Shown here: positions 22,934 to 57,681 of the stretch, in pieces
Numbering within the stretch: position 1 is the first letter of the stretch
Layout: every line of letters starts with the position of its first letter
From: Candidatus Omnitrophota bacterium
Lineage (GTDB): Bacteria > Omnitrophota > Gorgyraeia > 2-01-FULL-45-10
NCBI GenBank assembly: GCA_041661345.1
Contig: JBAZUO010000006.1
Location: forward strand, 3,410-67,409
Reading direction: 5' to 3'
Length of the DNA: 64,000 nucleotides
Made by a program: the position numbers and the translations under genes
Notes under the pieces: generated by a model
Told to the model about the DNA's origin: nothing
Databases searched by the model: none
What the model saw: only the letters and a program-made list of their open reading frames with translations

Positions 22934-23878
22934 CTAGCTCTTCGTATCCTCTTTTATGTAAACGCTATCGTCAGACCCTTTCTTCTGATGGCCGTATATT
23001 ACCAACTCTGCGACAAATCCGGTCATTATAATCTGTATAGCGGTCGTAAAAAAGAATAACCCCGCAAAGAATGCCGGCCTGATCCCTGTTTGCCCATAGC
23101 AAAATTTCATCATGATGCTATACAGGATCAATGCCGATCCGAGCGTTAAACTCAGTAAGCCGACCACACCTATGAAATGAAAAGGCCTCCTGGAATAACC
23201 AAGCAGGAAGTAGGCCGACAAAAAATCAAAAAAGCCGTGCAGGTAACGTTCCGATCCGAATTTAGATTTCCCATACGACCGCCTATTATGATGTACGGGT
23301 ATCTCCGTCATGATAAATCCGTAACTATTCGCCAGTATGGGTATGAACCTGTGCATCTCCCCGTATACTTTGATAGTTTTGATCACGCACTTTCGATATG
23401 CCTTGAACCCGCAGTTAAAATCGTGCAATTTGATACCGGTTATCAAAGACACGAATTTATTAAAAAAACCGGAGGCCAGTTTTTTTTCCAGAGGGTCTTT
23501 CCTATTGATCTTCCATCCATTAACAAGGTCATACCCCTCATCTATCTTTTTAATGAAATTGGATACCTCCCGGGGGTCATCCTGGAGATCGGCATCCATC
23601 GTAATCACTACATCGCCCTGTGCATTCTGAAAACCGATATTAAGCGCCATAGACTTGCCCATATTCCTTCTCAGCGTGAATAACCTGACCCTCTTATCCT
23701 TCTTCATCAATTCGTTTATAATTGCTCCGCCCTTATCGGCACTGCCGTCATCGACGAAAACCAGTTCATAATTGTATCGTTCAGCCTCTTTAGAGATCTC
23801 CTGATATAACTGGTTGAGGCTTAGCTCTTCATTATAAAAAGGCACAATTATCGAAATCAAACGTCCCTGGTTCATCAT
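22934..23878 (-). CDS. GT2 polyprenyl-phosphate glycosyltransferase (GtrB/ArnC/Dpm1-like) with C-terminal TM hairpin
   Basis: 314 aa. Motifs ISIIVPFYNEE, VFVDDGSADKG and MDADLQDDP, plus two C-terminal TM helices (FHFIGVVGLLSLTLGSALILY; FFAGLFFFTTAIQIIMTGFVAELVI). Confidence 0.85.
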   Translation of the reverse strand: MMNQGRLISIIVPFYNEELSLNQLYQEISKEAERYNYELVFVDDGSADKGGAIINELMKKDKRVRLFTLRRNMGKSMALNIGFQNAQGDVVITMDADLQDDPREVSNFIKKIDEGYDLVNGWKINRKDPLEKKLASGFFNKFVSLITGIKLHDFNCGFKAYRKCVIKTIKVYGEMHRFIPILANSYGFIMTEIPVHHNRRSYGKSKFGSERYLHGFFDFLSAYFLLGYSRRPFHFIGVVGLLSLTLGSALILYSIMMKFCYGQTGIRPAFFAGLFFFTTAIQIIMTGFVAELVIYGHQKKGSDDSVYIKEDTKS

Positions 23879-25494
23879 CTAATCCTCCTTTGGTCCACTG
23901 CGGTTCTTGGAAGATACACCTTGTAGTCATTATCGATCTCTTTTTCGAGCACATATCTTTTCTTCAATGCATCCGAGACCCCGCCGCTTAAGCTGGGTGT
24001 AAAATAAGGATCGTCGACGATCAGTTTAAACTCATTATCGTCTATCATCTGGATCAGTTTTTTTTCCGAAATAAGGTGATGTCTTTCGTAACTGTCATCT
24101 TTTACAATTCGAAATATTACTGCAATAGTGAAACTTTTGACCAGAGTGTTCGGAATTCGTCTATCGGCAACAAAGAGAGGCGCTTGTGAGCCTATCAGTA
24201 TCGCATCATCTTTTTTCGTATATTTGATTATTTCATCGGCTACTTTTCTAACGCTTGCCTGAGTCTCAAACCCTATATCCGGTTTGGTGAATATATTTGT
24301 TATAAATTTTTTATAACCTCCACCGACCGCCTTAAACCCAATCAAAAAATAGACGAGGATCAGGATTGTCAATAGCAACGATTTCACCCTGGATTTTTGC
24401 ATCGCCGTTAGCCAATAAATTATTGACGGAGCCGACCCTATCGCAAGAAAAGGGACGGCTATCCCGAAATAATGCCATGTAAAACCGTGCCTGCTTATAA
24501 AAACACATGTAACGAAATAAGCCAGAAGTATCAGCGACTGCAATATAACGCCTGCGCGATATCTCTTATAGCCGTCGCTTGCCGCAACGAGCAGGACTGC
24601 AAAACCGAACAGTATCAGTAATATGGCCGTCTGGCCGCCATATGATCTCAAAAAATCAACGAGAACATTGAATCGGAAAAGCCACGGGGTTGCGATATAA
24701 CTGCCATATTCCGGATGAAATACGATCTCCCTGTAAAAAGACGATCCCTTCAAATAACAAAAAATGAAGGTGTCGGGCCTTGTAAAAAATAGGTATATCG
24801 CCAGCGATGAACCCAGTATCGCGCCGCCTATCGCCGGCACGGATGCCAGGAGCGCGTTTTTCGTCCGCCCGGTATTTTTTCGGACATTATAAATAAAATT
24901 CAAAAATATGACCGCTGCGGGCAGTAAGACCGCCGATCTGCACCAGACCGCGGCGGCAAGGCAGATGCCTATTGAAAACCCATATAGGGAAAATCTTTTT
25001 GAATGCGAGGATAGTCCCGGTAAGGACGAAAGGAGCATGGCAAGCATTATGAAAAAAAGCGCTGTTTGCGAATGACCGGCGCTTTCGAGCGGACTGCCTT
25101 CAAAAAGGTAAAGGCTGCTTACCATAAAAAGCCCGGTGCATATTATCGCCGCGCTTCTTCTCTTATACGCATTTACAACGGCCAGATACGTGAAGACGGC
25201 TATCGAAGAGCTCAGCACATAAATTATGGTCCTTGCGACATAAATATTAAAACCGAACAATTTCATCAAGAAGCCGTGCATGAATACTGTGTACGGCGTA
25301 TGCTGGGAATAGTAATCACGCACCGGGAATACACCTTCCGTCGCCATTCGGGAAAGCAAAAGAAATGTTGATTCATCGGCGCCGTAATTTCTCCAAATGT
25401 ATCCTGCACAGCATATAAAAGACGCCGCAAATATAAATACAACGAGCCATCCGTTTTTTATGCTGTCGATCTTATCTTCTAAAAAATTACTCAT
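23875..25494 (-). CDS. GT-C-fold integral membrane glycosyltransferase (ArnT/PMT-like)
   Basis: 539 aa. About 11-12 TM helices with an acidic first-loop motif (YGADESTFLLLSRMA). Soluble C-terminal domain of about 130 aa. ATGA-coupled to the GtrB-like gene. Confidence 0.65.
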   Translation of the reverse strand: MSNFLEDKIDSIKNGWLVVFIFAASFICCAGYIWRNYGADESTFLLLSRMATEGVFPVRDYYSQHTPYTVFMHGFLMKLFGFNIYVARTIIYVLSSSIAVFTYLAVVNAYKRRSAAIICTGLFMVSSLYLFEGSPLESAGHSQTALFFIMLAMLLSSLPGLSSHSKRFSLYGFSIGICLAAAVWCRSAVLLPAAVIFLNFIYNVRKNTGRTKNALLASVPAIGGAILGSSLAIYLFFTRPDTFIFCYLKGSSFYREIVFHPEYGSYIATPWLFRFNVLVDFLRSYGGQTAILLILFGFAVLLVAASDGYKRYRAGVILQSLILLAYFVTCVFISRHGFTWHYFGIAVPFLAIGSAPSIIYWLTAMQKSRVKSLLLTILILVYFLIGFKAVGGGYKKFITNIFTKPDIGFETQASVRKVADEIIKYTKKDDAILIGSQAPLFVADRRIPNTLVKSFTIAVIFRIVKDDSYERHHLISEKKLIQMIDDNEFKLIVDDPYFTPSLSGGVSDALKKRYVLEKEIDNDYKVYLPRTAVDQRRIR

Positions 25495-25509
25495 GGTTTC
25501 CGCCCGCCG

Positions 25510-27504
25510 TCAACCGGTTATATCGGCAATGAACCCGGCTATCCTGTTAAACTGCATACCGTCCCTGTTATGATATACCCACGGATCGGCCGTTCTGCAA
25601 TTCTCTTTTATCAAACTATTGAACCCGTCATCTCCTAAAATTTTTTTGCAAGAATCATACAGCTCTGCGAAACCCGTAGCCCTCACAAAAGGATATCTAC
25701 CGTCACGCCTGTATCCGGCAGGCGTAAGGGCCTCGTCCTCAAACGGCGCGAGATCCTGTTTGTCGTGCTCGAATATCATAACCGGCCTTTCATAATCGAT
25801 CGCTTCGACCGCTATCGAGGACCGCGACGTAATGACTATATCCGCAAATGACAAAAGAGCCGGGTTCGCCGCTACGGCGTTTATTATTCTATATTTTCCA
25901 TTACCCGCAAAGCGGTTTATCCATGCCGCGGCTTTTGTAAAGGCCGGATGAGGCTTAATGATAAGATCGCAATTCAACCGTTCGCTTACATTAAGGACGT
26001 CGATGACCGATCTTTCGGTCTCATCGAAATTTGTATATAAATATTCCATATGAAAATCCCGCGTAAGCCGCGCCAGGAAATAGACTATCGTTTTTTTCCT
26101 GGCAGATAAACCGAGGGCCCCCTTCAGCACGCGTTTCCTGAGAAAACCCATATCTCTTCTCTTATCATATTCTATATTTCCGGTTACGGCCACATCCTTG
26201 GCGCTCAGGCCGGAACCTGTCATATTGTTTTTTATACCCTCTCCCACGACCGCAAAATGAGAATAACTGTTCGAGTAAAAAATATCGGTAGCCTTATCTA
26301 TTTCGCCCTTTTCCGGATAGATACAGAATTGAACGCCATGAGGTATCAATAATGACGGGATCCGTTCATTCGCGAAAAAATGTAGCGCAGCTGTATGGCT
26401 TGCCTCATTGGTCGCGTGAGATCCTCCCATCAAAAGGTCAAATCCATATTCTTCCTGCATCTCTTTTATCGATAGGTATCCAAGCCAGTAATCCGGCAGG
26501 TACCTCCTTAATATCCATCTGAGCTTGCTATTGCATAAATAGGTTATATTAATATCCTTGTAACGCTTGTCTTGCAGCAACGCGCCTTCGGCCAATTTTT
26601 CCGCATCCCTCACCAGATTGGTGAATGCATCGGTTACACGTATCTTCTCGCTTATTTTGAAAAGAGAAATTCCGTCGCCGGATTGTTCGCTTAAATATAA
26701 AAGAGGGTAGCACCGGCAGCCCGCAGAATCCCTTAACCATTCGACGAGCGGCTTCAATCTCCAAGAAGGAGATTTCGCGCCGCCGCCAAGTATCAAGATG
26801 CTCATCCCGGACAACTTCCCCCTGGTCTCGGCGGAGAGCTCCGCACCTTTAAAAACACGGTCATTCGCAAACAGTTTAAATACAAGATTTCCGTACCTAT
26901 TCTTGAAAGTCTGCCACAGCCCGTCTTTGCAGGCGGCTGGTAGGCGTAAGCCTGCGGCATTATCGGCCTTCCCTATTTCCAGCACTTTTACGCTATATCT
27001 CGCTCCGATAGCCCTCCCCAAATGTCTGATATTGTATTCCTTCGAATGCTCGAGCTCCACGACATCTTCAGGCCTGCCCGAAGGGACGATGATAAGCGCC
27101 GGCTTGAACATATTGACAGAATTGTGCATGACCGATATCGCATAGAAGACATAATTAAAGTAACGGTAGATCCCGTCCTTGACCGTTTCCGCAAGAGAAG
27201 CATCTCTTTTAAATACGAACCTCGCTGTGTCGGCCTTCAGGTCGTCAAGCCATTTCATCGCCCAGTCCGCCGCTTCTAAAAAAATCTCTTTTCTCTCTTC
27301 ATTAGATAATAGTTCTACAGGCAAAATCGGTTTTATGCCAAGGCCGCGCAGCATGATCTCCGCATCTATTTCCATCGCGATCCATGTAATCTCATCGGCG
27401 CCGATGCCATGAGCCGCTATCCCGTTAAAGATATCGACCACATCATCGGCAACCTCGACAAAGGCCAGTTTTGAACTATTCATTTCAGCTTTCATATCCG
27501 GCAT
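25510..27504 (-). CDS. Uncharacterised 664-aa protein; C-terminal domain resembles TagF-type / HP-motif GT-B transferases
   Basis: No TM segments. C-terminal motifs IVYFLARLTRD, CDLIIKPHPAF and ADIVITSRSSIAVEAIDYERPVMIFEHD. I do not recognise the N-terminal 400 aa or so. Confidence 0.35.
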   Translation of the reverse strand: MPDMKAEMNSSKLAFVEVADDVVDIFNGIAAHGIGADEITWIAMEIDAEIMLRGLGIKPILPVELLSNEERKEIFLEAADWAMKWLDDLKADTARFVFKRDASLAETVKDGIYRYFNYVFYAISVMHNSVNMFKPALIIVPSGRPEDVVELEHSKEYNIRHLGRAIGARYSVKVLEIGKADNAAGLRLPAACKDGLWQTFKNRYGNLVFKLFANDRVFKGAELSAETRGKLSGMSILILGGGAKSPSWRLKPLVEWLRDSAGCRCYPLLYLSEQSGDGISLFKISEKIRVTDAFTNLVRDAEKLAEGALLQDKRYKDINITYLCNSKLRWILRRYLPDYWLGYLSIKEMQEEYGFDLLMGGSHATNEASHTAALHFFANERIPSLLIPHGVQFCIYPEKGEIDKATDIFYSNSYSHFAVVGEGIKNNMTGSGLSAKDVAVTGNIEYDKRRDMGFLRKRVLKGALGLSARKKTIVYFLARLTRDFHMEYLYTNFDETERSVIDVLNVSERLNCDLIIKPHPAFTKAAAWINRFAGNGKYRIINAVAANPALLSFADIVITSRSSIAVEAIDYERPVMIFEHDKQDLAPFEDEALTPAGYRRDGRYPFVRATGFAELYDSCKKILGDDGFNSLIKENCRTADPWVYHNRDGMQFNRIAGFIADITG

Positions 27505-27523: not shown

Positions 27524-28018
27524 TTATAAAAATTTTTCTGCAAGGTTGAGGGCACTTATTACCGAGGCCTTTAACTCTCCTATCCGCGCAAGGCGCTCCT
27601 CATACACTTTCGCTATCTTTTTTTCTTCATCGGTAAGCTCGCTTCCGGCGGATCGGACGATCTCCATGAACTCCTCACTCACACTGGTGGCCTCCCGGAC
27701 ACGTTTCTGGATCCCCGCCTTGAGCTTGTTCGCTATAACCTTTTTAAGATCAAGCTCTGCCTCATAATAATCCTTCCGGGACCCCTTGACCCAGATATTC
27801 TTCACGGCCCCCCACTTTTCAAGCTCGCGCACATTTAAACTTATGCTCCCTTTGCTAACCCCGAGTTTTTCAACCATCTCGTCCAGGGAGAGAGGTTTAT
27901 GGCTCAAATACAGAAGCGCGTAAAGCTGAGCTACAAATTTGTTCAAGCCGAAACTGTCACACAATTTTCCTACGTGCTCTATGAACTTATGCTGTGCCAT
28001 CTCCAATTTAGCATTCAT
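27524..28018 (-). CDS. GbsR/MarR-like winged-helix transcriptional regulator
   Basis: 164 aa. LYALLYLSHKPLSLDEMVEKLGVSKGSISLNVRELEKWGAV matches the COG1510/GbsR-type wHTH pattern. ATGA overlap with the upstream radical SAM gene. Confidence 0.75.
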   Translation of the reverse strand: MNAKLEMAQHKFIEHVGKLCDSFGLNKFVAQLYALLYLSHKPLSLDEMVEKLGVSKGSISLNVRELEKWGAVKNIWVKGSRKDYYEAELDLKKVIANKLKAGIQKRVREATSVSEEFMEIVRSAGSELTDEEKKIAKVYEERLARIGELKASVISALNLAEKFL

Positions 28019-29634
28019 CTTAGTTTTCTCCGAAGTTTATCTTTTAAAATGCCCAGGGTCTTCCTTACCCCGGCCGTTTTCAACAACCAAAAGAATTTTT
28101 TCACTTTCTTATGAAACGCTATGAATCCGGAAGCTTTTTTCGACGCGTAAAGCCTGAATATCCTCTCCCCGTATCGCCCGAAAAGTTTTCTCATAAATCT
28201 CACCGTCCGCGGCTTCACGGCAATCCTGAAGGCCCATCCTTCGCGCAAAAAACCGTCTCTCACCAGAAGGAAGAGGAAGTTTTCGTACGTACGGTTCATG
28301 CTGTGAAATACCCGCCTGTTCTCCCGGTCCACATCCTCCCGCTTAAGGATGCCTTCTTCGATCGCCTTCTGGAAAAGCCTTGTTCCCGGCAGGAACCTTA
28401 ACGAAAATATATCAAGATAATCGTACCCTTTCAATCGGGCAATGAAGGCAAGGCTCTCCATGGCATCGTCAACGCTCTCCCACGGAGAATCCACGATCAC
28501 ATCATACTGTATGTTAAAGGTAAAATCCTTCTTGAGGCGATGGTTCAATTCGTCTACCTTCAATATCTGCTCCTTGCTCTCGCGGCGGTTGTAAAGCTTC
28601 CTTGTCTTTTCCGACCCGCTTTCTATTCCGAAGATGACACTATCCATGCCTGCGGATAAAAAATTTCTGAAAATTTCCTCATTTATCTGGTTGAACGTGA
28701 ACCCCGTCACGCTCAATGGTAGCTCTACGCTTGACCTGTACTCGCGGAGAATAGCTTCTAACGCGTCTCGCCTATTGGAAAGGATATTGGGATCAAAAAA
28801 TGCAACCCTGCTCACCCACGGGTAGCTCTTCCGTATCATCTTCAGCTCTTTGATAAAATGCTGTATATCTTTCGACTTTATTCTTTTCTGAAAACCGCTC
28901 CTATGGGCCAGGGTGTCATGGCCGCAATAAGAGCAGTCATTGACACACCCTCGGGAAAAAAAGGTGGCATATATATTAACGTGCTTACCCGCGTTCTCCG
29001 GCGTTATCTTCTCGCAGCCGCCTTCTGATAGATAATATTCGGACTGAAAAGAATAGTCCGGTAATGATTGTGAATCTAAAGACGCTTCTTTTCCGAAAAG
29101 GACGCGGCCCTCTCCGGACTTTCTTAAGACAGATGAAGAATAGATATTATCCGCAACCGGCACAAGCGCATCGCCCTGTGCGGGAAGATCGCCCCTTCTA
29201 AGCCTCTGGGCCAACTCCACTATGGCCCGTTCTCCGTCACCGATACAGACATAATCAGAGAAGAGGCTCGAATTATACGGATCGAGTGTCGCATGCGGCC
29301 CGCCCACAACAAATGGAATATCTTTCAGATTATACTTCGATGCGTAAATCTTATTCACGATATAGGCTACAAAGGAATATACAGTAATACCTATGAATAG
29401 AGAGCCCCGGGATATCTCGAACAGGTTCTTTATGGCATCGTCCGAAATATCATAATAACCATAATCCCAGGATAGCCCGCTTCCCTGCATCTTGGAAAGC
29501 TCTACGCAAACTATCGTAACTTCAAACCCTTGGGCACGCAATATGCCGGATAGATATCTGGCGGACATAGCTGCGCCGATAGAGTTTTGCCCAAACTGAA
29601 CAAGGGTGATCCTGTTTTTATCTGTTATTGGCAT
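28015..29634 (-). CDS. Class B (cobalamin-binding-domain) radical SAM enzyme, paralog 4
   Basis: 539 aa. Motifs VVGGPHATLDP...CIGDGERAIVELAQRL, then SRGCVNDCSYC. Confidence 0.85.
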   Translation of the reverse strand: MPITDKNRITLVQFGQNSIGAAMSARYLSGILRAQGFEVTIVCVELSKMQGSGLSWDYGYYDISDDAIKNLFEISRGSLFIGITVYSFVAYIVNKIYASKYNLKDIPFVVGGPHATLDPYNSSLFSDYVCIGDGERAIVELAQRLRRGDLPAQGDALVPVADNIYSSSVLRKSGEGRVLFGKEASLDSQSLPDYSFQSEYYLSEGGCEKITPENAGKHVNIYATFFSRGCVNDCSYCGHDTLAHRSGFQKRIKSKDIQHFIKELKMIRKSYPWVSRVAFFDPNILSNRRDALEAILREYRSSVELPLSVTGFTFNQINEEIFRNFLSAGMDSVIFGIESGSEKTRKLYNRRESKEQILKVDELNHRLKKDFTFNIQYDVIVDSPWESVDDAMESLAFIARLKGYDYLDIFSLRFLPGTRLFQKAIEEGILKREDVDRENRRVFHSMNRTYENFLFLLVRDGFLREGWAFRIAVKPRTVRFMRKLFGRYGERIFRLYASKKASGFIAFHKKVKKFFWLLKTAGVRKTLGILKDKLRRKLR

Positions 29635-31046: not shown

Positions 31047-31090
31047 TATGCTACCTCCTACTTTTATTGCGTTTAAAACATTTTGAAAGG

Positions 31091-31119
31091 ATACTAACAC
31101 AGTCATAACGTATTGTCAA
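31091..31119 (-). promoter_or_regulatory. Putative sigma70-type promoter of the 31046->1898 array (TTGACA-17-TAGTAT)
   Basis: The reverse complement reads TTGACA atacgttatgactgtgt TAGTAT. The -35 box is at 31119..31114 and the -10 box at 31096..31091. A leader of about 38 nt follows, with AGGAGG. Confidence 0.5.
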
Positions 31120-32042: not shown

Positions 32043-32071
32043 TTGACATAACATTTGGATCTCAATATAAT
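32043..32071 (+). promoter_or_regulatory. Perfect-consensus sigma70 promoter (TTGACA-17-TATAAT) for the radical SAM/SPASM gene
   Basis: TTGACA at 32043..32048, the 17-nt spacer taacatttggatctcaa and TATAAT at 32066..32071. In-frame ATG 32082 begins 11 nt after the -10 box. Confidence 0.6.
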
Positions 32072-32081
32072 GACAGCCGCT

Positions 32082-33035: not shown

Positions 33036-33793
33036 TTCCTTGCGCCCGTTAAGATAGCCGACACTTCCTCATGCTGTAGTAATTCGGCATATATATCCTT
33101 GGGCTGCCTATCGCCGCCTTTTCTTACCGGTGAATTGAGTATAATCGAAATTCCCATGCCGCGGATAATATTCACGAGATCCGGCCTTTTCAAAAAGATC
33201 GATGCCGGCATTTGTATCACGTCAAGCCATCCTATAAGCTTATTTTTTACAACCGTCTCCACCATCGCCTCATTCGAGATCGATGCGCCCGTATAGTTGA
33301 TACCGGCGTAATGGGTTTTCTTCATATTGGTCATCTCATCGATAATCTCGCCATCTTTTAATACCTCGGACGCTGCCCTATGTATATATAACAGGTCAAT
33401 TTTACCGAGATGGGACAAGCTCTGTTTTACCGAGGCTACAAGCTCACGCCTGGAGTGGTTAAGCGTAGCCGTCTGTGAAGACGCGTCAAAACCTTCCCCC
33501 CATTTTGTGGCAATGAAAGTTTTTGGTAATAGCTCTTTTCTGTTATTGAGATATCTCCCTATCAACTCTTCGCTCCTGCCATAAGAAGGAGAGGTATCTA
33601 TCATGAGGCTCCCATCCTGATCAGCGGCGCATAAAAATGCTTCATCCAGATATAGCGATATCTCCCTAAAATCCGGATACTTATAGGAAAAGTTATCCGG
33701 CGGCCATTTTCGGCCAAACCAGGTAGTCCCTACTCCGAGAAGAAAAATATTTAGTCCGTCTTTTCCGAACCGCCTGACAGGCAGAGGTGTCAC
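32993..33793 (-). CDS. Aldo/keto reductase family oxidoreductase
   Basis: 266 aa. Motifs LGVGTTWFG and IDTSPSYGRSEELIGRYL. GTG start overlaps the upstream stop by 1 nt (TAGTG). The 3' end overlaps the plus-strand gene by 43 nt. Confidence 0.8.
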   Translation of the reverse strand: MTPLPVRRFGKDGLNIFLLGVGTTWFGRKWPPDNFSYKYPDFREISLYLDEAFLCAADQDGSLMIDTSPSYGRSEELIGRYLNNRKELLPKTFIATKWGEGFDASSQTATLNHSRRELVASVKQSLSHLGKIDLLYIHRAASEVLKDGEIIDEMTNMKKTHYAGINYTGASISNEAMVETVVKNKLIGWLDVIQMPASIFLKRPDLVNIIRGMGISIILNSPVRKGGDRQPKDIYAELLQHEEVSAILTGARNHLRETLGFFCRSK

Positions 33794-38044: not shown

Positions 38045-38048
38045 CGGT

Positions 38049-49211: not shown

Positions 49212-51093
49212 GCTCTTGCCTCGTATCAATAAATCTCCTGAGCCATAATTCAAGGTTAATCCAGCTCCATACGGCATAACAGGCATCCTTTTTCCCTTCA
49301 ATAAACAGTTCGTATGTTTTCATAACATTTTCGCTGTTAAAATATGGACGGCTCCTGAACTCTCTGGAATTGAGGATCTCTCTCACCTTATCCTTAAGAT
49401 CCGCTTTAAACCACTTCTCGAGAGGCGTGGCAAATCCCATCTTATCTCTTCTTAGCCTGACTTTATCGGGTAAGATACCCTTAAGCGATTCCCTCAATAT
49501 ATATTTTGTGAATCCGTTCTTTATCTTATATTCCGGCCCCAATGAGAACAAATATTCCACAAGCCTGTAATCCAAAAATGGCGCCCTCGTTTCTACTGAA
49601 TGCGCCATGCTCGACCGGTCATCTATGTGCAGAAGGGATGGAAGCGGAGAAATTTTAAGCGCATTGTACAGGTCATTATTTAATATGCCGGAGAATTTTC
49701 TTTCAATCTTTACCTTGCCGCTACTGTTCATAACAAATTCCCTGTCCAGATAATCCGGTGTTTTCTTTTCTCTGATGCTATCGATCAAATTTTTAAAAGT
49801 CCGGGGTGTAGAATAAGAAAACAATATTTTAAATATGCGGCCGGCCACATCCTCGTCGCCCTTGAAACTCCTGTAAATATCGATCTCCCTAACGGCATCG
49901 GGCCACTTAAAAGACCGGATCAGATCCGCAAATAAATAAAAATAATATTTATGATAACCCGCGAGGATCTCATCTCCACCCTGGCCGGTCAAAAGCACTT
50001 TAACCCCTTTATCCCTCGCGGCCTTCATCACATACCACTGCGGGAATATGCTTAAAGTACTGTATGGCTCGTCCTGATGCCATATTATTTCTTCCATCTC
50101 GCCAAAAAGATGTTCAGGCTTGGTAAATATAAAATTCGGCCTTGCCTTCGTTCTTTCCAATACCAGGTTTATAAACTTTCTCTCATCGTATTTATCGTCT
50201 TCGAAACAGGATGAAAAAGTTTCGATCGGACTGCCTTTAAGAATATCCGCCGCAATACACGCGATAGATGAAGAGTCGAGCCCTCCGCTTAATGAGATCC
50301 CCAGAGGAACATCGCTTCTTAACCGCAGCCTGACGGAATCTTCGAAAAGCTCACGAAATTTATCACATGCCTGGCTTTCCGATCGCGGCAGTGCCCTCTT
50401 ATTCGGATCGAGGTCCCAATATTTCACCTGAATAAATTTCTTATCCGGAATCGACAGTTTTATGTAGTGGGCGGCCTTAAGCTGCCTTACGGATCGGAAA
50501 AATGTCTCGTCGGAAATATCCATATAACCATATCCCGAGGCGAGATAATTAAAGACAGCCTTGTCGTTAGCTTCCCTTTTTATCCGCGAGTTAACAAGCA
50601 GTCCCTTGATTTCGGATGCGAATATAAAAGCGGAGTCATCCAAGTAATAGTAGAAAGGTTTAACGCCGAATCTGTCTCTTGCGCAAAAAATCTCTTTCTT
50701 CTTTATATCCAGGATAGCGAACGCCCACATACCGTTAAAATGTTTAAGGCAATCCTCGCCCCATTCCTCGTATGCGTGGATAATAACTTCCGTGTCTGAC
50801 CTGGATCTGAATATGTGGCCGAGCCTCGCCAGCTCTTCTCTCAACTCGACGTAATTATAGATCTCGCCGTTATGCACAATGTAGAGGGTCGAATCCTCGT
50901 TAGGCATCGGCTGATGGGCAACTTTGGAAAGGTCTATTATGGAAAGCCTGGCGTGGCCCAGGCCGATGAAACCGTCTAAATATACACCCATATCGTCAGG
51001 GCCGCGATGCCGCAAGGATTTTACCATCTCCTCAAGGATGCCCCTGTCGGCAGGCTTTCTATCCAGATTAACTATACCGGCTATGCCGCACAT
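49201..51093 (-). CDS. asnB: Asparagine synthase (glutamine-hydrolysing) family amidotransferase, glycan-modifying type
   Basis: 630 aa. MCGIAGIVN (N-terminal Cys nucleophile, Ntn GATase), SLSGGLDSS (PP-loop) and a long C-terminal synthetase domain. Confidence 0.9.
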   Translation of the reverse strand: MCGIAGIVNLDRKPADRGILEEMVKSLRHRGPDDMGVYLDGFIGLGHARLSIIDLSKVAHQPMPNEDSTLYIVHNGEIYNYVELREELARLGHIFRSRSDTEVIIHAYEEWGEDCLKHFNGMWAFAILDIKKKEIFCARDRFGVKPFYYYLDDSAFIFASEIKGLLVNSRIKREANDKAVFNYLASGYGYMDISDETFFRSVRQLKAAHYIKLSIPDKKFIQVKYWDLDPNKRALPRSESQACDKFRELFEDSVRLRLRSDVPLGISLSGGLDSSSIACIAADILKGSPIETFSSCFEDDKYDERKFINLVLERTKARPNFIFTKPEHLFGEMEEIIWHQDEPYSTLSIFPQWYVMKAARDKGVKVLLTGQGGDEILAGYHKYYFYLFADLIRSFKWPDAVREIDIYRSFKGDEDVAGRIFKILFSYSTPRTFKNLIDSIREKKTPDYLDREFVMNSSGKVKIERKFSGILNNDLYNALKISPLPSLLHIDDRSSMAHSVETRAPFLDYRLVEYLFSLGPEYKIKNGFTKYILRESLKGILPDKVRLRRDKMGFATPLEKWFKADLKDKVREILNSREFRSRPYFNSENVMKTYELFIEGKKDACYAVWSWINLELWLRRFIDTRQEHGI

Positions 51094-51099: not shown

Positions 51100-52215
51100 T
51101 TATCTCTTAAAGAATTCCATGATCTTTTTTATAACGTAATCCTTCTGTTCGATTTTCAGTTCCGGATAAACGGCGATCGCGAATGTTTCGAGCGATGCGG
51201 CCTCAGACTCTTTCAGGTCTCCTTTTTTATATCCAAGGCTTTTATAACATTCCTGCAGGTGAAGCGGTATCGGGTAATAAGTTCTGGTCTCAACGCCGCC
51301 GTCTACGAGAAACCTCATCAGCTTTTCGAGGCCGGACCGGACTCTTAAAACATACTGATGATAGGTATGAATATTATGGCTGGGAACGTAAGGCAGGATT
51401 AATGGCAGGGTTTTTAAATTTTCATTATAATACATCGCATTGGCCCTGCGCGCTGCAAGCCATTTATCGAGATATCTTAATTTAACCCTCAACACAGCGG
51501 CCTGGATATTATCAAGCCTTGAATTGGTTCCGATTACGGCGTGGACATATCTTACGGAACTGCCGTGAACTCTCAACATCGTAAGCCTTTCAGCCAGGCT
51601 CTTGTCATTAGTAACTACCATGCCGCCTTCGCCGAATGCCCCGAGGTTCTTGCTAGGAAAGAAGCTTAGCGCCCCGAGATCCCCCATTGAACCGGCTTTT
51701 TTGCCTTTATATACGGCGCCTATAGCCTGAGCGCAGTCTTCCACGATCTTTAGCCCATGTTTCCCGGCAATGGCAAGTATCGGATCCATCTCAGCGCATT
51801 GGCCGTAAAGATGAACGGGTATGATAGCCTTAGTTCGTTTACTGATCTTCCGCTCGATGAGATTAGGGTCTATATTGTATGTCTTTGGGTCGATATCCAC
51901 GAATACGGGCTTCGCGCCCACCAGCGAGATGACTTCCGCGGAAGAGAAGAACGTAAAAGGCGATGTGATCACCTCGTCACCCGGTTTTATCCCAAGCGCC
52001 ATAAGCGACAATAGGAGCGCGTCTGTACCCGATGCCACACCTACGGCATATTTCGTATTACAATACCGGGCGATCTCCTTTTCAAGTTCCTTTAAATCTT
52101 CGCCCAATATAAAATTCTGGCTTTCCACCACCCTGTCAACAGCTTCCTTTACCTCTTTTTTGATCGTTTCGTATTGCCCTTTTAAGTCTAATATAGAAAT
52201 CTGCATACCCTTCAT
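51100..52215 (-). CDS. DegT/DnrJ/EryC1/StrS-family PLP-dependent sugar aminotransferase
   Basis: 371 aa. Motifs GVASGTDALLLSL, IIPVHLYGQCAEMD and LSFFPSKNLGAFGEGG (catalytic Lys context). Confidence 0.9.
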   Translation of the reverse strand: MKGMQISILDLKGQYETIKKEVKEAVDRVVESQNFILGEDLKELEKEIARYCNTKYAVGVASGTDALLLSLMALGIKPGDEVITSPFTFFSSAEVISLVGAKPVFVDIDPKTYNIDPNLIERKISKRTKAIIPVHLYGQCAEMDPILAIAGKHGLKIVEDCAQAIGAVYKGKKAGSMGDLGALSFFPSKNLGAFGEGGMVVTNDKSLAERLTMLRVHGSSVRYVHAVIGTNSRLDNIQAAVLRVKLRYLDKWLAARRANAMYYNENLKTLPLILPYVPSHNIHTYHQYVLRVRSGLEKLMRFLVDGGVETRTYYPIPLHLQECYKSLGYKKGDLKESEAASLETFAIAVYPELKIEQKDYVIKKIMEFFKR

Positions 52216-53693
52216 CCTTTCTTGATATTATTTTTTAAATTCCTTTTAACGAATTTATTCACCCCAAGCCCGGACAAAACCACCATAAGTTTTTTAAAAT
52301 TTATAAGCCTCCCCGCCAGAAATCCGATCACCAGACCATATCTTTTCGTGAATAGCCCTGTAAAATATTTTGTAGCGACACGATTGCTCAGCCTCTTACC
52401 AAGTTTTAACGCCTTTATCCTGTCCTTGCATGGAAAATCATCCGTTTCAAAGATAGGAAATCCGGAATAATAGGAAAGCCGGTCGAGGTATTTCTCATCC
52501 TTATCAAGAAAAATAGAATTTTTTCTGATCCAGTCAAATACTTCTGTCCCCGGATAAGGAACGAGATTATAAAAATTGATCTTGTCTACGGGCCAGTTTT
52601 CGACCTTTTTTATATACTCCCTGATCATATTTAAATTTTCACCGGGATGTCCGATAATAAAAGTTGCGCCGACATACTCTATTCCGGCCTTTTTTGCAAG
52701 GCGCACCGCGCTTTCCGCCTGAGAAACCTTTATCCCCTTACCCATTCTCGCCAATATATCATTGTTCCCGCTTTCCACGCCGAACATGATAATTTTACAT
52801 CCGGATTGCTTCATCTTAAGGAGGAGGGATTCGCTGACCCTGTCCGCTCTCGTACCATTACCTAAAAACCAGCTTATTTTTAAATCGGCTTTGATTATAA
52901 GATCGCAAATCTCCTCTGACCGTTTCATGTCAAAGGTAAAGCAATCATCTATGAATTCGAATTCCTCATACCCTAAGTTTTTCCAATGGATGAGTTCGTC
53001 AAATACATTTTTAGGAGAGCGCGGCCTAAAATTTCTTCCCATAGTCAGCCTTACCGCACAATAATTACAATTATAAGGACAGCCTCTTGATGACGCGATA
53101 TTGATCCTCTTCCTCCTGGCGTATCTATCTATCTCAAAATCTTCATACGCCGGAAAAGGAAGGCTGTCCAGGTCCGTTATGGGCTCCCTGTCGGCATTTT
53201 CCGTAACTGCGCCGTCTCTTTTAAAAATCAGGCCTTTTATCTCTTCCGGGCCGGAAATATTGCCTTTAAGAAATTCCAGAAGCTCAATAAGCGTGAATTC
53301 CCCCTCACCCTTGATCGCATAATCAGCTTCGGTCTCACGCAAACTCTCCTGTCTAACCGATGAAACGTGGGGCCCGCCTATAACTACAGGAATATCAACG
53401 ATCTCTTTTATTTTCTTTATCAAGGCTTGTGTTTTGCTTCGCTCGAGGCTCCAATAGCTTATACCTACAACGGTCGGTTTGTAATCGGCAATTATATCTT
53501 TTATATCTCCGACAGAATAACCTAATCGCATATCTATAGCCTTAAAATCTATAGAATTCTTCTTCAGCATCCCCGATAGATAGGCCAAACCCACAGGAGG
53601 CTCATTAGGAACGCCGAGATCAAAACTCTCAATACTTATCTTAGGCATGATAAGCAGTATATTATGCGAACTTATCGGTCTATTCTGCTGCAT
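52212..53693 (-). CDS. Class B (cobalamin-binding-domain) radical SAM enzyme, paralog 7; first gene of the 53693->32993 array
   Basis: 493 aa. Motifs VIGGPHVSSVRQE...AIKGEGEFTLIELLEFL, then SRGCPYNCNYC. Confidence 0.9.
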   Translation of the reverse strand: MQQNRPISSHNILLIMPKISIESFDLGVPNEPPVGLAYLSGMLKKNSIDFKAIDMRLGYSVGDIKDIIADYKPTVVGISYWSLERSKTQALIKKIKEIVDIPVVIGGPHVSSVRQESLRETEADYAIKGEGEFTLIELLEFLKGNISGPEEIKGLIFKRDGAVTENADREPITDLDSLPFPAYEDFEIDRYARRKRINIASSRGCPYNCNYCAVRLTMGRNFRPRSPKNVFDELIHWKNLGYEEFEFIDDCFTFDMKRSEEICDLIIKADLKISWFLGNGTRADRVSESLLLKMKQSGCKIIMFGVESGNNDILARMGKGIKVSQAESAVRLAKKAGIEYVGATFIIGHPGENLNMIREYIKKVENWPVDKINFYNLVPYPGTEVFDWIRKNSIFLDKDEKYLDRLSYYSGFPIFETDDFPCKDRIKALKLGKRLSNRVATKYFTGLFTKRYGLVIGFLAGRLINFKKLMVVLSGLGVNKFVKRNLKNNIKKG

Positions 53694-53910: not shown

Positions 53911-54636
53911 ATGTCAACCTTAATAGTAATGCCAACGTACAATGAATGCAACTGCCTGGAGAATATCTTAAGGGCTATTTTAGCTCTAGGCCTTGACATA
54001 AAAATTTTGATCGTCGACGACAATTCCCCTGACGGCACAGGCCGTATCGCTGACGCCCTGGCAAGATCGGATAATCACATATCTGTATTACACCGGCCAA
54101 AGAAGGAAGGCTTGGGGAAAGCCTATCTTGAAGGCTTCAGGCGCGCCCTCGAAGATAAAGATGTCGATTATATAATGGAAATGGACGCCGATTTTTCGCA
54201 TGACCCAAAATATATTCCAAAATTCCTCGAGGCAATATCCGACTGTGATATCGTCATCGGCTCCAGATTTTACAAGGGCAGGATCAGCATAGTCAACTGG
54301 CCTCTCTCGCGGCTTATCCTGAGCTACGGGGCGCGTATCTACGTAAGATTATTTGCCGGGCTGGGCTTGAGCGATCCTACAAGCGGCTTCAAATGCTTCA
54401 GGCGCCGCGCGGTGGAAATGATCTTGAATAATGGGATAATATCGAACGGGTACGCCTTTCAGATAGAGGTAAACTACGCTTGCAAAAAACTGGGGCTAAA
54501 ATTCGGGGAGATCCCTATAATATTTTATAACAGGGATATAGGTACTTCAAAAATGGGCGCCCTGCGCACAGTCATAGATGCGATGGCTATTGTATGGTTA
54601 GTCAAATTCAAAAGATTCACAGGAAGCATTAAATAA
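53911..54636 (+). CDS. Polyprenol-phosphate mannose/hexose synthase (Dpm1/Ppm1-like GT2, soluble form)
   Basis: 241 aa. Motifs LIVMPTYNE, LIVDDNSPDGTG, EGLGKAYLEGF, MDADFSHDP and IGSRF. Confidence 0.9.
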   Translation: MSTLIVMPTYNECNCLENILRAILALGLDIKILIVDDNSPDGTGRIADALARSDNHISVLHRPKKEGLGKAYLEGFRRALEDKDVDYIMEMDADFSHDPKYIPKFLEAISDCDIVIGSRFYKGRISIVNWPLSRLILSYGARIYVRLFAGLGLSDPTSGFKCFRRRAVEMILNNGIISNGYAFQIEVNYACKKLGLKFGEIPIIFYNRDIGTSKMGALRTVIDAMAIVWLVKFKRFTGSIK

Positions 54637-54647
54637 AACCCTCCGGT

Positions 54648-55931
54648 TCAAATCCCCACATCACGTTTTTTGGCATGCACTATTAGTTCACCTTTCATTA
54701 TATATTTATACTCCAATATTTCAAAACCGTTTTTTTCTAACAGCGAGCAAAGCTCTTTTCTGTCATAATGCGCGATGTGCCCCTCTCCATATGCAAGAGG
54801 CAATATCCTGACGTAGAACCATTCGAAAAATCGCCACCAAAAAGCCGCATAATCAGGGGTGCCTATTATAAGACGGCCTCCATTTTTTAAAACTCTGTTA
54901 AATTCACCCAAATCTAAACTTTCTTTAGGGATATGCTCGACGACCTGCGAACAGATGGCCCGGGAAAATACCTCGTCTTTAAAAGGAAGTTTCGCTATAC
55001 TGCCCTTCACCAATAAGTTACTCACTTTATTCTTGATATAATTCAATTTTTTTAAGCTGATATCCAATCCTACGGAATGCTCCAGGTTTTGAATTATCCT
55101 GCTTGAACCGCATCCCAAGTCCACCAGGCGGCCTTCGCCTTTCGCCATCTTCATGATCAGGGAGTACCTTTTTCTTTGCCAGTATCTCTGCAGAGGTATT
55201 ATGCTGTCAAAAGCCCTGTCGTCATAATCTGCGGAAAAATTTGAATTTCTCAGTTGCCAGGATTGATAAAGGGTCCTGGCATATGAAAGGCCAAATTTAA
55301 ATATCTTTGCAGTTGATCTGTCATGACGCCTCGGTTCATAGAAAAATGGAATTTCCATGATGTGGTAACCATCGCAGTGAATCTTTATCAGAATCTCCGC
55401 AAGTATATTAAAATCTTCCGCGCTGATGGTATTCAATAAGCTCTTTGCAATACCGGTGTCATATAACCTAAAACCGCTTGATAAGTCTTTATAAGGTAAT
55501 GAGAGGGTAAGCGAGTAAGCTTTATTTAAAATTATACTTAATATCTTACGGAAGAAGGGCATGCTGGCGCCCCCGCCGCGCACATAACGCGATGCTATCA
55601 CCAGTTGACACTCATTCCGCTTCTCCCAGAGTCCATTTATAAATTTTGGATTATGGGAACAGTCGGCATCGAGAGTTATAGCATATTTGCCGCCGGCTAC
55701 CTCGAATGCCTGTTTAAACGCGCTGCCATATCCTGGAATGCGTTGAGTTATTACTTTGCAGTCGAAGGATTTTGCGATTTCGGCAGTACCATCGTAGGAA
55801 TTACCGTCTACAACTATGATCTCATAAGCCGATGTCAGCTCCGATACAACAGTTTTTATTTTTGGGACCAATAATTTCAAATTGTCCGCTTCATTGTACG
55901 CCAAAATGATGATAGACAGTTCTTTCTTCAT
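54648..55931 (-). CDS. Fusion protein: Dpm1-type GT2 + C-terminal class I SAM methyltransferase (second copy of this architecture)
   Basis: 427 aa. GT2 motifs: LSIIILAYNE, IVVDGNSYDGT, LDADCSHNP. MT motifs: LVDLGCGSSRII, VFSRAICSQVVEHI, KNGGRLIIGTPD. Confidence 0.85.
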   Translation of the reverse strand: MKKELSIIILAYNEADNLKLLVPKIKTVVSELTSAYEIIVVDGNSYDGTAEIAKSFDCKVITQRIPGYGSAFKQAFEVAGGKYAITLDADCSHNPKFINGLWEKRNECQLVIASRYVRGGGASMPFFRKILSIILNKAYSLTLSLPYKDLSSGFRLYDTGIAKSLLNTISAEDFNILAEILIKIHCDGYHIMEIPFFYEPRRHDRSTAKIFKFGLSYARTLYQSWQLRNSNFSADYDDRAFDSIIPLQRYWQRKRYSLIMKMAKGEGRLVDLGCGSSRIIQNLEHSVGLDISLKKLNYIKNKVSNLLVKGSIAKLPFKDEVFSRAICSQVVEHIPKESLDLGEFNRVLKNGGRLIIGTPDYAAFWWRFFEWFYVRILPLAYGEGHIAHYDRKELCSLLEKNGFEILEYKYIMKGELIVHAKKRDVGI

Positions 55932-55941
55932 ATTATCAAGA

Positions 55942-57681
55942 TCACCTTAATTTTATCTTATAGATCTTCAGGCTATTCTGATACTCCGACGCGGGATTGT
56001 CAAATGTGGCGCCGCTCGGATAGTAAACCTCTTCTTCAAATCTCCCCGCCTCGGGAAGATCTTTATAATAATTTGCCCTTAGGAAATCGGCTCTTTTCTC
56101 GGTGTGATTAGTAAGATACGACCTTATCCCTTCTCCCATTTCTTTCGCAAGGCCCGGCGCTTCCGTCAATTCATCCAATCTATGGCACGTAAGAAGCATA
56201 TATTCTATTCCATGACGGCTCAGTATCGTTCCGATAAGCTCTTCCTGCCCGGCAAAAGTCAGCTTCTCAAATCTCAGGCCATTTTTTTCATCCCGTAGTA
56301 TCTTATCGGCTTCGTACATGATCTGATTCACCGAAATGTAGCTGTAATCTTTATAAAGGCCCGGCCAAAAATATATCGGCCCGGCAACGCTTGAGCCTGG
56401 TGGAATATACGATTTTACCTTTTCTATGAAACCTGCATAAGGCTGCCTCTTGCCTGAAGAAAGGTCTTTATATATAAAAGCTGCATTGGCAGAAAAATAT
56501 AAAATTAAAATCATAGCAAAAAAAATGGTCTTAAACATATCGGGTTTCATACCGCGCGCACTAAATCCAGCTATCAATCTATCCGTAGGCAAAGAAAGGC
56601 ATATGCCGAAATACGGCACCATTTCATAGAGATAAGCCGGAAATTTATTGGGATGGACCGACATGGATATGATGAATACAGATATAATGAATAGCAAAAA
56701 AAATTCGCTTTTTGTCTTAAACTTTTTGATTATGAGGGCCGCGAAAGAAGCAAAAAGAATAATCTGGCCGGACATGCGCGCAAAATATATATTCAGGTTA
56801 ACATTGGAAATAAGCCAATTTAAATCATAAATATATCTATTAACAAGCCGGCCATCTACCCAGATATTGTTGAATATATTCCTCACTGGCGGCAACCCGA
56901 AATACCGCACCGGAATCTCATCCAGGATATTAAGGAAAATAGGCTGGGCATAATAGAATTCCTTAAATATTAGACCCATCTGCCTGGCATATTCCTGAAA
57001 GTTCAATAAAATATACGCCATATAAGGGCCGACGCTGAGCAAAAGCCCAAGCATATACAGGAAAAGCTGAAAAAAGGATCTATTGTAGAAAATCAAAAGA
57101 ATGGTTATTATTATACTTATGGCCATGCCTGTGGGGTGCGATAAATATGACATGCCCGTCAATATCCCGGATGCTATGAAATAAAATTTAGAGCGATTCG
57201 TATTTGCTATATAGTAAAATAAAATAGCCGATACGCCGAACAATGTCGCGGGAATTTCCGATAATAGTTGCCTGGAATTCAAAAAAAATATATGACTTGA
57301 CGCGACGATCAGCGCGGATAACAGGGCCACCCTGCCATTAAACATCCTCCGTGCAAGAAGATAGACGACAATCAATGTTATAACACTCAGAATGATGTAT
57401 AATAACCGGCCGGTAAAGATACTTAAACCGAATATTTTTCCGAATCCTGCCAATAGGATCCACTGTAACGGCATCGCATTGAAAAGCTTTCCATACTCAA
57501 ATTTGGCTGTGTAAAAATCACACCAAATCCGCCCTTCTGTTATTATGTGGTTTGCGGTATTCAGATGGACTATCTCATCAAACCATGGGTTGGGGACATC
57601 CGCTAATTTATATAGCGCTAGAAACACGTATAAAGATAATATGATAAGGAGCAATAATCTAAAACGTGTTTTATTTTTCAT
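55942..57681 (-). CDS. GT-C-fold membrane glycosyltransferase (ArnT/PMT_2, GT39/GT83-like)
   Basis: 579 aa. About 12 TM helices, then a soluble C-terminal domain. First-loop motif PNPWFDEIVHLNTANHII (the DE motif of ArnT/PMT-type enzymes). Confidence 0.75.
   Translation of the reverse strand: MKNKTRFRLLLLIILSLYVFLALYKLADVPNPWFDEIVHLNTANHIITEGRIWCDFYTAKFEYGKLFNAMPLQWILLAGFGKIFGLSIFTGRLLYIILSVITLIVVYLLARRMFNGRVALLSALIVASSHIFFLNSRQLLSEIPATLFGVSAILFYYIANTNRSKFYFIASGILTGMSYLSHPTGMAISIIITILLIFYNRSFFQLFLYMLGLLLSVGPYMAYILLNFQEYARQMGLIFKEFYYAQPIFLNILDEIPVRYFGLPPVRNIFNNIWVDGRLVNRYIYDLNWLISNVNLNIYFARMSGQIILFASFAALIIKKFKTKSEFFLLFIISVFIISMSVHPNKFPAYLYEMVPYFGICLSLPTDRLIAGFSARGMKPDMFKTIFFAMILILYFSANAAFIYKDLSSGKRQPYAGFIEKVKSYIPPGSSVAGPIYFWPGLYKDYSYISVNQIMYEADKILRDEKNGLRFEKLTFAGQEELIGTILSRHGIEYMLLTCHRLDELTEAPGLAKEMGEGIRSYLTNHTEKRADFLRANYYKDLPEAGRFEEEVYYPSGATFDNPASEYQNSLKIYKIKLR

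Follow-up and report, generated by a model that had tools for sequence, protein, structure and literature searches.

Four GT-C glycosyltransferases beside GT2 enzymes and GT2-methyltransferase fusions in a glycan-biosynthesis cluster of an Omnitrophota bacterium

Organization of the locus

We analyzed a stretch of 64,000 nucleotides (hereinafter the window) from a Candidatus Omnitrophota bacterium (assembly GCA_041661345.1, contig JBAZUO010000006.1, positions 3,410 to 67,409), for which an earlier reading of the sequence (the original prediction) had proposed three, possibly four, adjacent pairs of a polyprenyl-phosphate-sugar synthase of glycosyltransferase family 2 (GT2) and a polytopic membrane glycosyltransferase of the GT-C fold. 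The window is a single, tightly packed glycan-biosynthesis cluster of 54 genes, almost all on the minus strand, with intergenic gaps mostly below 20 bp and many overlapping starts and stops. The four polytopic proteins and five GT2 proteins concerned are encoded by open reading frames (ORFs) that all lie where that reading had placed them, and we describe them here as the modules A to D.

In module A, the minus-strand genes for A_GT2 (22934-23878), a GT2 domain followed by two C-terminal transmembrane (TM) helices, and A_mem (23875-25494), a TM core with a C-terminal soluble domain, overlap as predicted: the stop of A_mem and the start of A_GT2 share the tetranucleotide ATGA, with an AAGGAGG site ahead of it, through which the two genes are translationally coupled. 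The other junctions measure 3-11 bp. Module B, also on the minus strand, consists of B_mem (33793-35601), an all-membrane protein with an extra N-terminal helical block of ~190 aa, and B_GT2MT (35611-36966), in which a GT2 domain is fused to a class I S-adenosylmethionine (SAM)-dependent methyltransferase (MT); the start of the latter is likely the ATG at 36966, in agreement with the original prediction, because the resulting N-terminus, MKLSV, equals that of an orthologue on another Omnitrophota contig (L001). Two cytoplasmic glycosyltransferases of the GT4 family and GT-B fold (36968-39290, minus strand; Pfam Glycos_transf_1 and Glyco_trans_4) separate it from module C, which comprises the small all-membrane C_mem (39274-40530) and the membrane-anchored C_GT2 (40534-41505), both on the minus strand. 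Module D combines the plus-strand gene for a soluble GT2, D_GT2 (53911-54636), with minus-strand genes for a second GT2-MT fusion, D_GT2MT (54648-55931), and for D_mem (55942-57681), a polytopic protein with a C-terminal soluble domain.

Thus, the four GT-Cs and the four GT2s that belong to the synthase clade (see below) fall within 35 kb. When the order of the 54 genes was shuffled 200,000 times, all four GT-Cs adjoined a GT2 in 0.13% of the shuffled orders (P = 0.0013), and at least three adjoined a GT2 resembling dolichol-phosphate mannose synthase (DPMS) or GtrB in 0.8% of them; the arrangement is not due to chance.

The polytopic proteins belong to the GT-C fold

All four polytopic proteins, each with roughly 7-12 TM helices by hydropathy, are GT-C glycosyltransferases and not transporters, polymerases or ligases, which bears out the original prediction in this respect; the classification that would have refuted it applies to none of them. 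For C_mem and D_mem the assignment comes from the Pfam PMT_2 gathering score together with profile links to the modelled families, and for A_mem and B_mem from AlphaFold models, both of them helical bundles, searched with Foldseek.

A_mem has no Pfam, NCBIfam or PDB match in direct sequence searches, and a word-index search recovered a single relative where an exhaustive search recovered 118; among the aligned relatives 22 of 33 match PMT_2, and the sole PDB match of the family profile is the protein O-mannosyltransferase TMEM260 (2e-6). The AlphaFold model of A_mem (pLDDT 88.6) finds ArnT as its top match (5ezm; E 4.8e-8; TM-score 0.61 in both directions), and the top 26 matches are all GT-C enzymes. 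D_mem, an ArnT/PMT-like GT-C, is directly recognizable by PMT_2 (62 bits), PMT (36 bits) and a PDB match to ArnT (5ezm, 5e-3), and it aligns with the A_mem family (hhalign 99.1%, E 1e-18) over 412 columns that include the C-terminal soluble domain.

B_mem likewise lacks a Pfam or NCBIfam match, and the one hit that came out of the direct searches with A_mem and B_mem, a bradykinin receptor at E 0.02, is noise of TM composition; 6 of the 27 members of its family carry a precomputed PMT_2 assignment. Its AlphaFold model (pLDDT 90.1, pTM 0.90) is a helical membrane protein up to the C-terminus, and the top 34 Foldseek matches in the PDB (best E 8e-5) are all of the GT-C fold: STT3/PglB/AglB, Pmt4, PIG-M, ALG3/9/12, PimE, ArnT, AftA, DPY19 and the GPI-transamidase subunit PIG-U. 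C_mem, which the original prediction had thought might instead be a Wzy polymerase, scores 29.3 bits with PMT_2 (cut-off 26.1; model positions 7-158 of 160) and is linked to the B_mem family both by hhalign (96.5%, E 8e-10) and by hmmsearch with the B_mem profile (6e-8); it has no Wzy_C match, its single-sequence PDB search returns nothing other than potassium-channel noise, and the Wzy alternative is dropped.

Two sub-types emerge from the profile comparisons: one consists of A_mem and D_mem, which bear the C-terminal soluble domain, and the other of B_mem and C_mem, which are all-membrane. The sub-types are in turn linked to each other at 96.6%. Across both sub-types, a D[DE] motif follows the first core TM helix. 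It is invariant in the families of A_mem (D40 and E41, along with D60) and B_mem (S227, D228, D229 and Y233, forming S-D-D-x-x-x-Y), while D35-E36 of D_mem aligns with the invariant DE of the former and G-D67-D68-x-x-Y of C_mem with the invariant SDDGxxY of the latter; judging from the fold, this loop would face outward. None of the four has a match to Wzy_C or an O-antigen ligase domain in Pfam or NCBIfam at E<=0.01, and a WWD or WWDxG motif is absent from all of them. Two identities were rejected: that of a classical oligosaccharyltransferase (PglB/AglB/STT3), by the missing WWDYG motif and, in B_mem, the missing periplasmic domain, and that of a Wzy protein, ligase or transporter, by fold matches of the A_mem and B_mem models that are exclusively GT-C, by PMT_2 in the relatives and by the want of Wzy_C.

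Four of the five GT2 proteins fall in the polyprenyl-phosphate synthase clade

The prediction that the GT2 partners are polyprenyl-phosphate-sugar synthases stands for A_GT2, B_GT2MT, D_GT2MT and D_GT2, and fails for the fifth protein, C_GT2 (40534-41505), which is another kind of membrane GT2.

A_GT2 is a polyprenyl-phosphate glycosyltransferase of the GtrB/ArnC type (Pfam GT2 5.7e-33; NCBIfam ArnC 4e-52 and PgfS 2e-42), which aligns over residues 7-293 with both ArnC (1e-45) and the Synechocystis GtrB sll0501 (1.5e-30) in the PDB. Its TM helices span residues 235-253 and 271-289, and its metal motif DADLQD (in the context MDADLQDDP) aligns with 89-DADLQH-94 of the P. furiosus DPMS (PfDPMS). 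It scores below the NCBIfam equivalog cut-offs (177 bits against 529 for ArnC and 146 against 500 for PgfS) and is not an equivalog of either, but belongs to the same clade as these enzymes.

The remaining three synthase-clade proteins have no TM helix and are closest to PfDPMS, with ArnC and GtrB as the next-best PDB matches: D_GT2, predicted to be a soluble DPM1-type polyprenyl-phosphate hexose synthase, over residues 3-226 (5e-30; motif DADFSH), D_GT2MT over residues 4-223 (4e-20) and B_GT2MT over residues 8-222 (1.5e-21). The two fusions each combine Pfam GT2 and Methyltransf_11 domains (1e-23 and 9e-15 in D_GT2MT; 1e-27 and 2e-17 in B_GT2MT), and both methyltransferase domains keep SAM motif I (VLEAGSGSA in B_GT2MT). 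In PfDPMS, Arg117, Arg131 and Ser135 bind the phosphate of dolichyl phosphate and are described as kept in bona fide DPMSs; a PfDPMS lacking TM helices is still directed to the membrane and active, and DPM1-type proteins without such helices are normal (PMC5526996). In our alignment this triad is intact (R/R/S) in D_GT2, D_GT2MT and an archaeal orthologue of the latter (L016), K/K/S in A_GT2, R/K/N in the B-type fusion and its orthologues, and Y/K/A in C_GT2. The DAD metal site is present in D_GT2 and D_GT2MT, and the A-loop Arg202 in these two and in B_GT2MT.

C_GT2 matches Pfam GT2, Glyco_tranf_2_3 and Glyco_transf_21 (33 bits) and aligns with the NCBIfam HpnI model over residues 7-303, that is, through its C-terminal TM region. 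Its best PDB matches are TarS, GalT1, chondroitin synthase and PcManGT, with ArnC reaching 3e-3, and the position of D91 is taken by G. On this sequence evidence it looks like a membrane-embedded GT2 that would act on a lipid-anchored acceptor.

The modules in related loci

Modules B, C and D are conserved beyond the window. On the Omnitrophota contig L001, overlapping genes encode a GT2 that shares 53% identity with the GT2 portion of the fusion, then a separate methyltransferase and then a B_mem orthologue; a planctomycetial metagenome-assembled genome (L005) shows the order B_mem, GT2, MT; in a Nitrospinae genome (L009) a fused GT2-MT lies upstream of the B_mem orthologue; and in L011 the GT2 and the MT are found a few kb upstream of it. 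This variation between split and fused forms of GT2, MT and B_mem is good evidence that the parts work together. Weaker DPMS-like GT2s occur within 4 kb of B_mem relatives in four further loci (L002, L006, L007 and L010), and none was seen near those of L003 or L008. In L003, an Omnitrophota contig, a gene for a UbiA-family prenyltransferase (5020-5910) is found directly upstream of that for a B_mem-like GT-C (6001-7635), an arrangement that corresponds to three-component systems of the polyprenyl-phosphoribose (pentofuranose) type (PMC11127046).

C_GT2 and C_mem orthologues adjoin each other in L002 and L008. A larger block is also retained: in the window the Wzx gene is followed directly downstream by C_GT2, C_mem, GT4, GT4, the GT2-MT fusion and B_mem, and versions lacking the GT2-MT are kept in L008 and, with one GT4, in L002, where a radical SAM gene may come after C_mem in this block. 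Of the possible fourth pair (40534-41505 with 39274-40530), then, the GT-C and the conserved adjacency hold up, while the GT2 lies outside the synthase clade.

The D-type fusion belongs to a much larger family. We retrieved 2750 homologues of D_GT2MT; the best 120 of the 2750 (P0147-P0266) are 45-67% identical to it, and their sources include Omnitrophota, Chloroflexota, Acidobacteriota and Dormibacteraeota among the bacteria and, among the archaea, a member of the Woesearchaeota. One of them (P0187) is labelled by NCBI as [quoted passage not shown], and many bear the JGI label "dolichol-phosphate mannosyltransferase". We examined six genomic contexts besides the window. That of the woesearchaeotal protein (L016) has the same trio as the window, namely a GT2 of ~240 aa, a GT2-MT and a PMT_2 GT-C, and in L014, from Omnitrophota, two weakly GT-C-like proteins of 540 aa are encoded upstream of the fusion. 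Adjacent to another orthologue, on the upstream side, is a gene for a small membrane protein of the EamA/TMEM234 kind, a Pfam family type to which the ArnE/F flippase also belongs. The conservation of the D-type family, often in housekeeping neighborhoods, points to a general envelope function. A metagenome scan with D_GT2MT returned generic GT2-only relatives at ~30% identity and no orthologues of the fusion; in the same scan, DPMS-like GT2s adjoin GT-Cs in L024, L028, L031, L044, L048, L052-54 and L058.

Module A differs in its associations. The neighbor conserved with the A_mem family is a soluble protein of 664 aa encoded upstream of A_mem (25510-27504, minus strand), homologues of which adjoin A_mem homologues in L012 (3e-141) and L013 (2e-84); it shows weak matches to Glyphos_transf (TagF-like) and to the BFO_1060 glycosyltransferase and has no sequence relative in the PDB. 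In L012, its homologue is found beside cytidylyltransferases. The A pair is upheld as to its adjacency and its ATGA coupling, and its support, which comprises this coupling and the strong resemblance to ArnC/ArnT, comes from this window only, the GT-C neighbor in relatives being the 664-aa protein and not the GT2. In L050, a gene for a GtrB-type GT2 (154-1089; 1e-75 to A_GT2) is followed by one for a free methyltransferase (1055-1654) homologous to the MT domains of the fusions, and the association of GT2 with MT hence occurs also with the TM-anchored type of synthase.

Other genes of the window

The cluster further encodes nucleotide-sugar pathways (RmlB, RmlD, UDP-glucose dehydrogenase, two further epimerases/dehydratases, FdtA, two DegT aminotransferases and an AsnB-type amidotransferase) and a nonulosonic acid set (NeuB, a cytidylyltransferase, a HAD protein and an aminotransferase). 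Besides the GT2s and GT-Cs there are four GT4 enzymes and a two-domain GT2-GT4 fusion of 704 aa, the gene of which (3395-5509, minus strand) lies at the downstream, promoter-distal and low-coordinate, end of the cluster. Export and regulation are represented by a Wzx-like flippase (41483-42982, minus strand; Pfam Polysacc_synt_3 and Polysacc_synt; ~12 TM helices), a fused ABC exporter (18259-20022) and a MarR/TrmB-type regulator (27524-28018, minus strand), which lies between radical SAM genes and module A and overlaps its upstream gene by 4 bp. Apart from the ABC exporter, the Wzx-like protein is the sole flippase candidate in the window. Among the 54 genes we detected no priming phosphoglycosyltransferase (PGT) of the WbaP or WecA type, no Wzy, WaaL, Wzz/OPX or GtrA, and no candidate acceptor protein.

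Modification genes are abundant. Two GDSL esterases, four free class I methyltransferases, seven B12-binding radical SAM proteins (1898-3376, 20025-21458, 21463-22914, 28015-29634, 29625-31106, 47730-49301 and 52212-53693, all on the minus strand) and two SPASM radical SAM proteins (32055-33035 on the plus and 46663-47733 on the minus strand) are encoded, and all nine radical SAM proteins, the four free methyltransferases and the two fusions lie inside this one glycan cluster. Such a load suggests a glycan that is heavily C- and O-methylated or otherwise radical-modified, and this content may be more unusual than the GT-C pairs. Related loci encode multidomain proteins of this kind: a GT4 fused to a B12-radical-SAM domain (906 aa; L008, 1908-4628) and a B12-radical-SAM protein fused to a class I methyltransferase (717 aa; L003, 7607-9760). 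Elsewhere in the window, two short overlapping ORFs (17419-17799 and 17796-18341, minus strand) match different halves of AP_endonuc_2, a xylose-isomerase-like TIM barrel, which might reflect a gene that is split or frameshifted, or else a fault in the assembly.

Proposed mechanism and alternatives

Given the GT-C identity of the polytopic proteins and the synthase clade of four GT2s, the locus is predicted to encode several extracytoplasmic glycosyl transfers that depend on lipid donors. We propose that these transfers are superimposed on cytoplasmic assembly, with four GT2 synthases feeding four GT-Cs and the fusions methylating sugars on the carrier, and we regard this scheme as a whole with moderate confidence. 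[quoted passage not shown] The lipid-monophosphate sugars would then be flipped, the candidates for this step being the Wzx-like protein and an unlinked flippase, and be used as donors by A_mem, B_mem, C_mem and D_mem, with their acidic first-loop motifs turned outward and an exported glycan or a surface protein as the acceptor. Since the synthases and the GT-Cs are equal in number, D_GT2 could serve C_mem. The methyltransferase domain of the fusions would most likely O-methylate the sugar on the lipid carrier in the cytoplasm, before flipping, because SAM is not available outside the cell. Modification of sugars on the carrier has precedents in the deformylase ArnD, in DprE1/E2 and in AglP of Haloferax. 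Here we infer the lipid acceptor of the GT2s, the pairing of each synthase with its GT-C, the target of the methyltransferases, the cargo (one sugar or an oligosaccharide) and the final acceptor. The narrower claim, that the GT2-MT fusions and their split GT2 and MT counterparts make polyprenyl-phosphate-linked O-methyl sugars that the adjacent GT-C would install pre-methylated outside the cell, is one that we put forward tentatively, as on balance doubtful.

Several observations weigh against the proposal. C_GT2 was rejected as a synthase of the DPMS/GtrB type by its PDB matches, which lie elsewhere, and by a phosphate site that is not kept. In the loci of A_mem homologues (L004, L012 and L013) no GtrB-like GT2 lies beside the GT-C. 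In B_GT2MT, M-A-D replaces D-A-D, and K/N replaces R131/S135, substitutions shared by its orthologues in L001 and L009. The best fold matches of B_mem are oligosaccharyltransferases, at TM-scores of only 0.35-0.42. The window holds no GtrA-like small membrane ORF, nor free intergenic space for one. In L015, L071 and L072, D-type fusions are isolated within housekeeping surroundings, and what we take the methyltransferases to act on is a matter of pure inference.

The leading alternative, which we deem possible, if clearly the less probable course of events, is a pathway like that of the lactococcal polysaccharide pellicle, wherein one or more of the GT2 products prime an oligosaccharide built by the GT4s on polyprenyl monophosphate, the Wzx-like protein flips it, and the GT-Cs, especially B_mem and C_mem, polymerize it and ligate it to the final acceptor, thereby substituting for the missing Wzy and WaaL. 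In lactococci, a GtrB-like enzyme makes GlcNAc-P-C55; elongation of this product in the cytoplasm is followed by flipping through a Wzx-type protein and by polymerization and ligation through GT-Cs, the components being WpsA/B, WpsG (Wzx), WpsH and WpsJ (PMC10821137). The lack of a priming PGT, Wzy, WaaL and Wzz in 64 kb fits this picture, as do the interleaving of modules B and C with GT4s directly downstream of Wzx, the retention of that block without the GT2-MT in L008 and L002, and the fact that the best, low-scoring fold matches of B_mem are enzymes transferring oligosaccharides en bloc. However, the window covers 64 kb of a 68-kb contig, so that other parts of the genome may contain the priming and ligase genes; B_mem has neither a periplasmic domain nor the WWDYG motif; A_mem and D_mem are of ArnT-like, single-sugar types; and four synthases for four GT-Cs suit one donor per transferase better. 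With no PGT, Wzy, WaaL or GtrA in the window, some of the GT-Cs may polymerize or ligate lipid-linked oligosaccharides, as in lactococci, instead of adding single sugars. The original prediction of several extracytoplasmic glycosyl decorations on top of cytoplasmic assembly therefore survives as regards the transfers, for which GT-Cs and synthases are encoded, whereas its reading of each as the addition of a single sugar was overstated, considering those absences and the resemblance of the conserved block beside Wzx to the lactococcal scheme.

A different acceptor for the same machinery is, in our estimate, unlikely: some or all of the GT-Cs would then be protein O-glycosyltransferases like PMT, TMEM260 or PgfM, modifying surface or S-layer proteins. 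TMEM260 is the only PDB sequence match of the A_mem family profile, PMT and PMT_2 are among the Pfam matches, and A_GT2 resembles PgfS of streptococcal protein glycosylation (2e-42). But the best fold match of A_mem is ArnT, which modifies lipid A, the genes sit in a cluster of the polysaccharide type (Wzx, GT4s and sugar-nucleotide pathways), and the window offers no gene for a candidate acceptor protein.

We assign a still lower likelihood to the possibility that the GT2-MT fusions are soluble bifunctional enzymes adding and methylating a terminal sugar on a growing cytoplasmic glycan, as modifiers or terminators of the chain, their proximity to GT-Cs reflecting operon packing. Chain terminators combining GT2 and MT domains exist, as in WsaE of Geobacillus, and neither fusion has a TM helix, members of the large D-type family are often found on their own with no GT-C nearby, and in the B-type the first Asp of DxD is missing and two of the positions that bind phosphate are K/N. 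Against this, the closest structural relatives of the fusions are exclusively polyprenyl-phosphate glycosyltransferases (DPMS, ArnC and GtrB), the D-type and its archaeal orthologue have the full R/R/S triad, the linkage of GT2, MT and GT-C recurs, split and fused, in four phyla, and enzymes of the DPM1 type normally lack TM helices (PMC5526996). Finally, an identity of the polytopic proteins as Wzy polymerases, as O-antigen ligases or as transporters, which one might gather from the missing direct Pfam or NCBIfam matches of A_mem and B_mem and from the want of an identifiable Wzy in the locus, is highly improbable, as there is no Wzy_C match, the models, which are confident, find GT-C folds alone (Foldseek gives transporters a probability of <=0.2), relatives carry PMT_2 and the acidic loop motif of GT-Cs is conserved.

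Relationship to characterized systems

The three-component logic into which our proposal of lipid-linked donors fits has reportedly been reviewed by Mann and Whitfield. Its closest parallel for module A is ArnC/ArnT: the similarity of A_GT2 to ArnC extends along the whole protein and takes in both C-terminal TM helices, the model of A_mem can be superposed on ArnT (TM-score 0.61) with the periplasmic domain included, the genes of the pair show translational coupling, and alteration of the Arn sugar on its lipid carrier by ArnD resembles the methylation proposed for the fusions. Unlike that system, the window has no ArnA/B/D/E/F genes, A_GT2 is not an ArnC equivalog, and A_mem has no direct PMT_2 match and pairs in relatives with the 664-aa protein.

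Side-by-side genes for a GT-A polyprenyl-phosphate-sugar synthase and a GT-C are shared with GtrA/GtrB/Gtr*, GacI/J/K/L, CsbB/GtcA/YfhO and SccN/M with SccP/Q. The presence of multiple pairs in one polysaccharide locus is shared as well, the Streptococcus mutans SCC locus with its two experimentally proven GT2/GT-C pairs being a case in point (PMC11754754). The window differs from both groups in having four GT-Cs and four synthase-clade GT2s within 35 kb and no GtrA, and in that three of its synthases are TM-less and of the DPM1 type, two of them fused to methyltransferases. D_GT2, D_GT2MT and B_GT2MT are closest to PfDPMS, among the DPMS enzymes (PfDPMS, DPM1 and Ppm1) that supply PMT, ALG, PIG-M and PimE users and of which TM-less forms are known. 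A C-terminal class I methyltransferase domain is, however, not part of any characterized DPMS, and B_GT2MT retains only the second Asp of DAD (MAD) and has K/N at two triad positions.

With the lactococcal WpsA/B-WpsG-WpsH/I-WpsJ pathway the cluster has in common a GtrB-like GT2, cytoplasmic glycosyltransferases, a Wzx-type flippase and GT-Cs (two in the lactococcal case) in one cluster, as well as the lack of a classical PGT for that glycan; a Wzx-type flippase can indeed serve three- and four-component glycosylation systems (PMC10821137). The window differs in that no WpsB/GacJ-like activator was identified in it and in the order and number of the modules.

Implications

A system of this kind, and loci with several pairs, are already known, and multi-pair loci recur in the relatives examined. 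The description of the locus as unusually multi-layered is thus to be taken in relative terms, for GT-C/GT2 modules recur in related loci of Omnitrophota and Nitrospinae, and S. mutans has two pairs (PMC11754754). Novelty of degree lies in the four GT-Cs encoded in 35 kb, two of which come from subfamilies, the A_mem and B_mem families, that are invisible to current profile libraries, being missed by the present Pfam and NCBIfam models. The new component is the fusion of a DPMS-like GT2 with a methyltransferase, which is found fused or split beside GT-Cs, is widespread and is uncharacterized; our literature search found no characterized GT2-MT/GT-C system and no published function for the fusion.

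The three-component scheme of polyprenyl-phosphate-sugar synthase, flippase and GT-C, which has recently been extended to pentofuranoses (PMC11127046), is herewith extended to the uncultivated Omnitrophota and their neighbors, in which loci appear as a rule to carry several modules of this sort. Such loci may operate in the absence of a classical PGT, Wzy or WaaL, which bears on the prediction of surface glycans from genomes of candidate phyla. Furthermore, a very large GT2-MT fusion family that crosses domains of life is provided with a testable hypothesis, namely that its members make methylated lipid-linked donors. Should this prove true, the fusions would define a widespread and hitherto undescribed class of lipid-linked glycosyl donor, given the very large size of the D-type family and its distribution across bacterial phyla and DPANN archaea.

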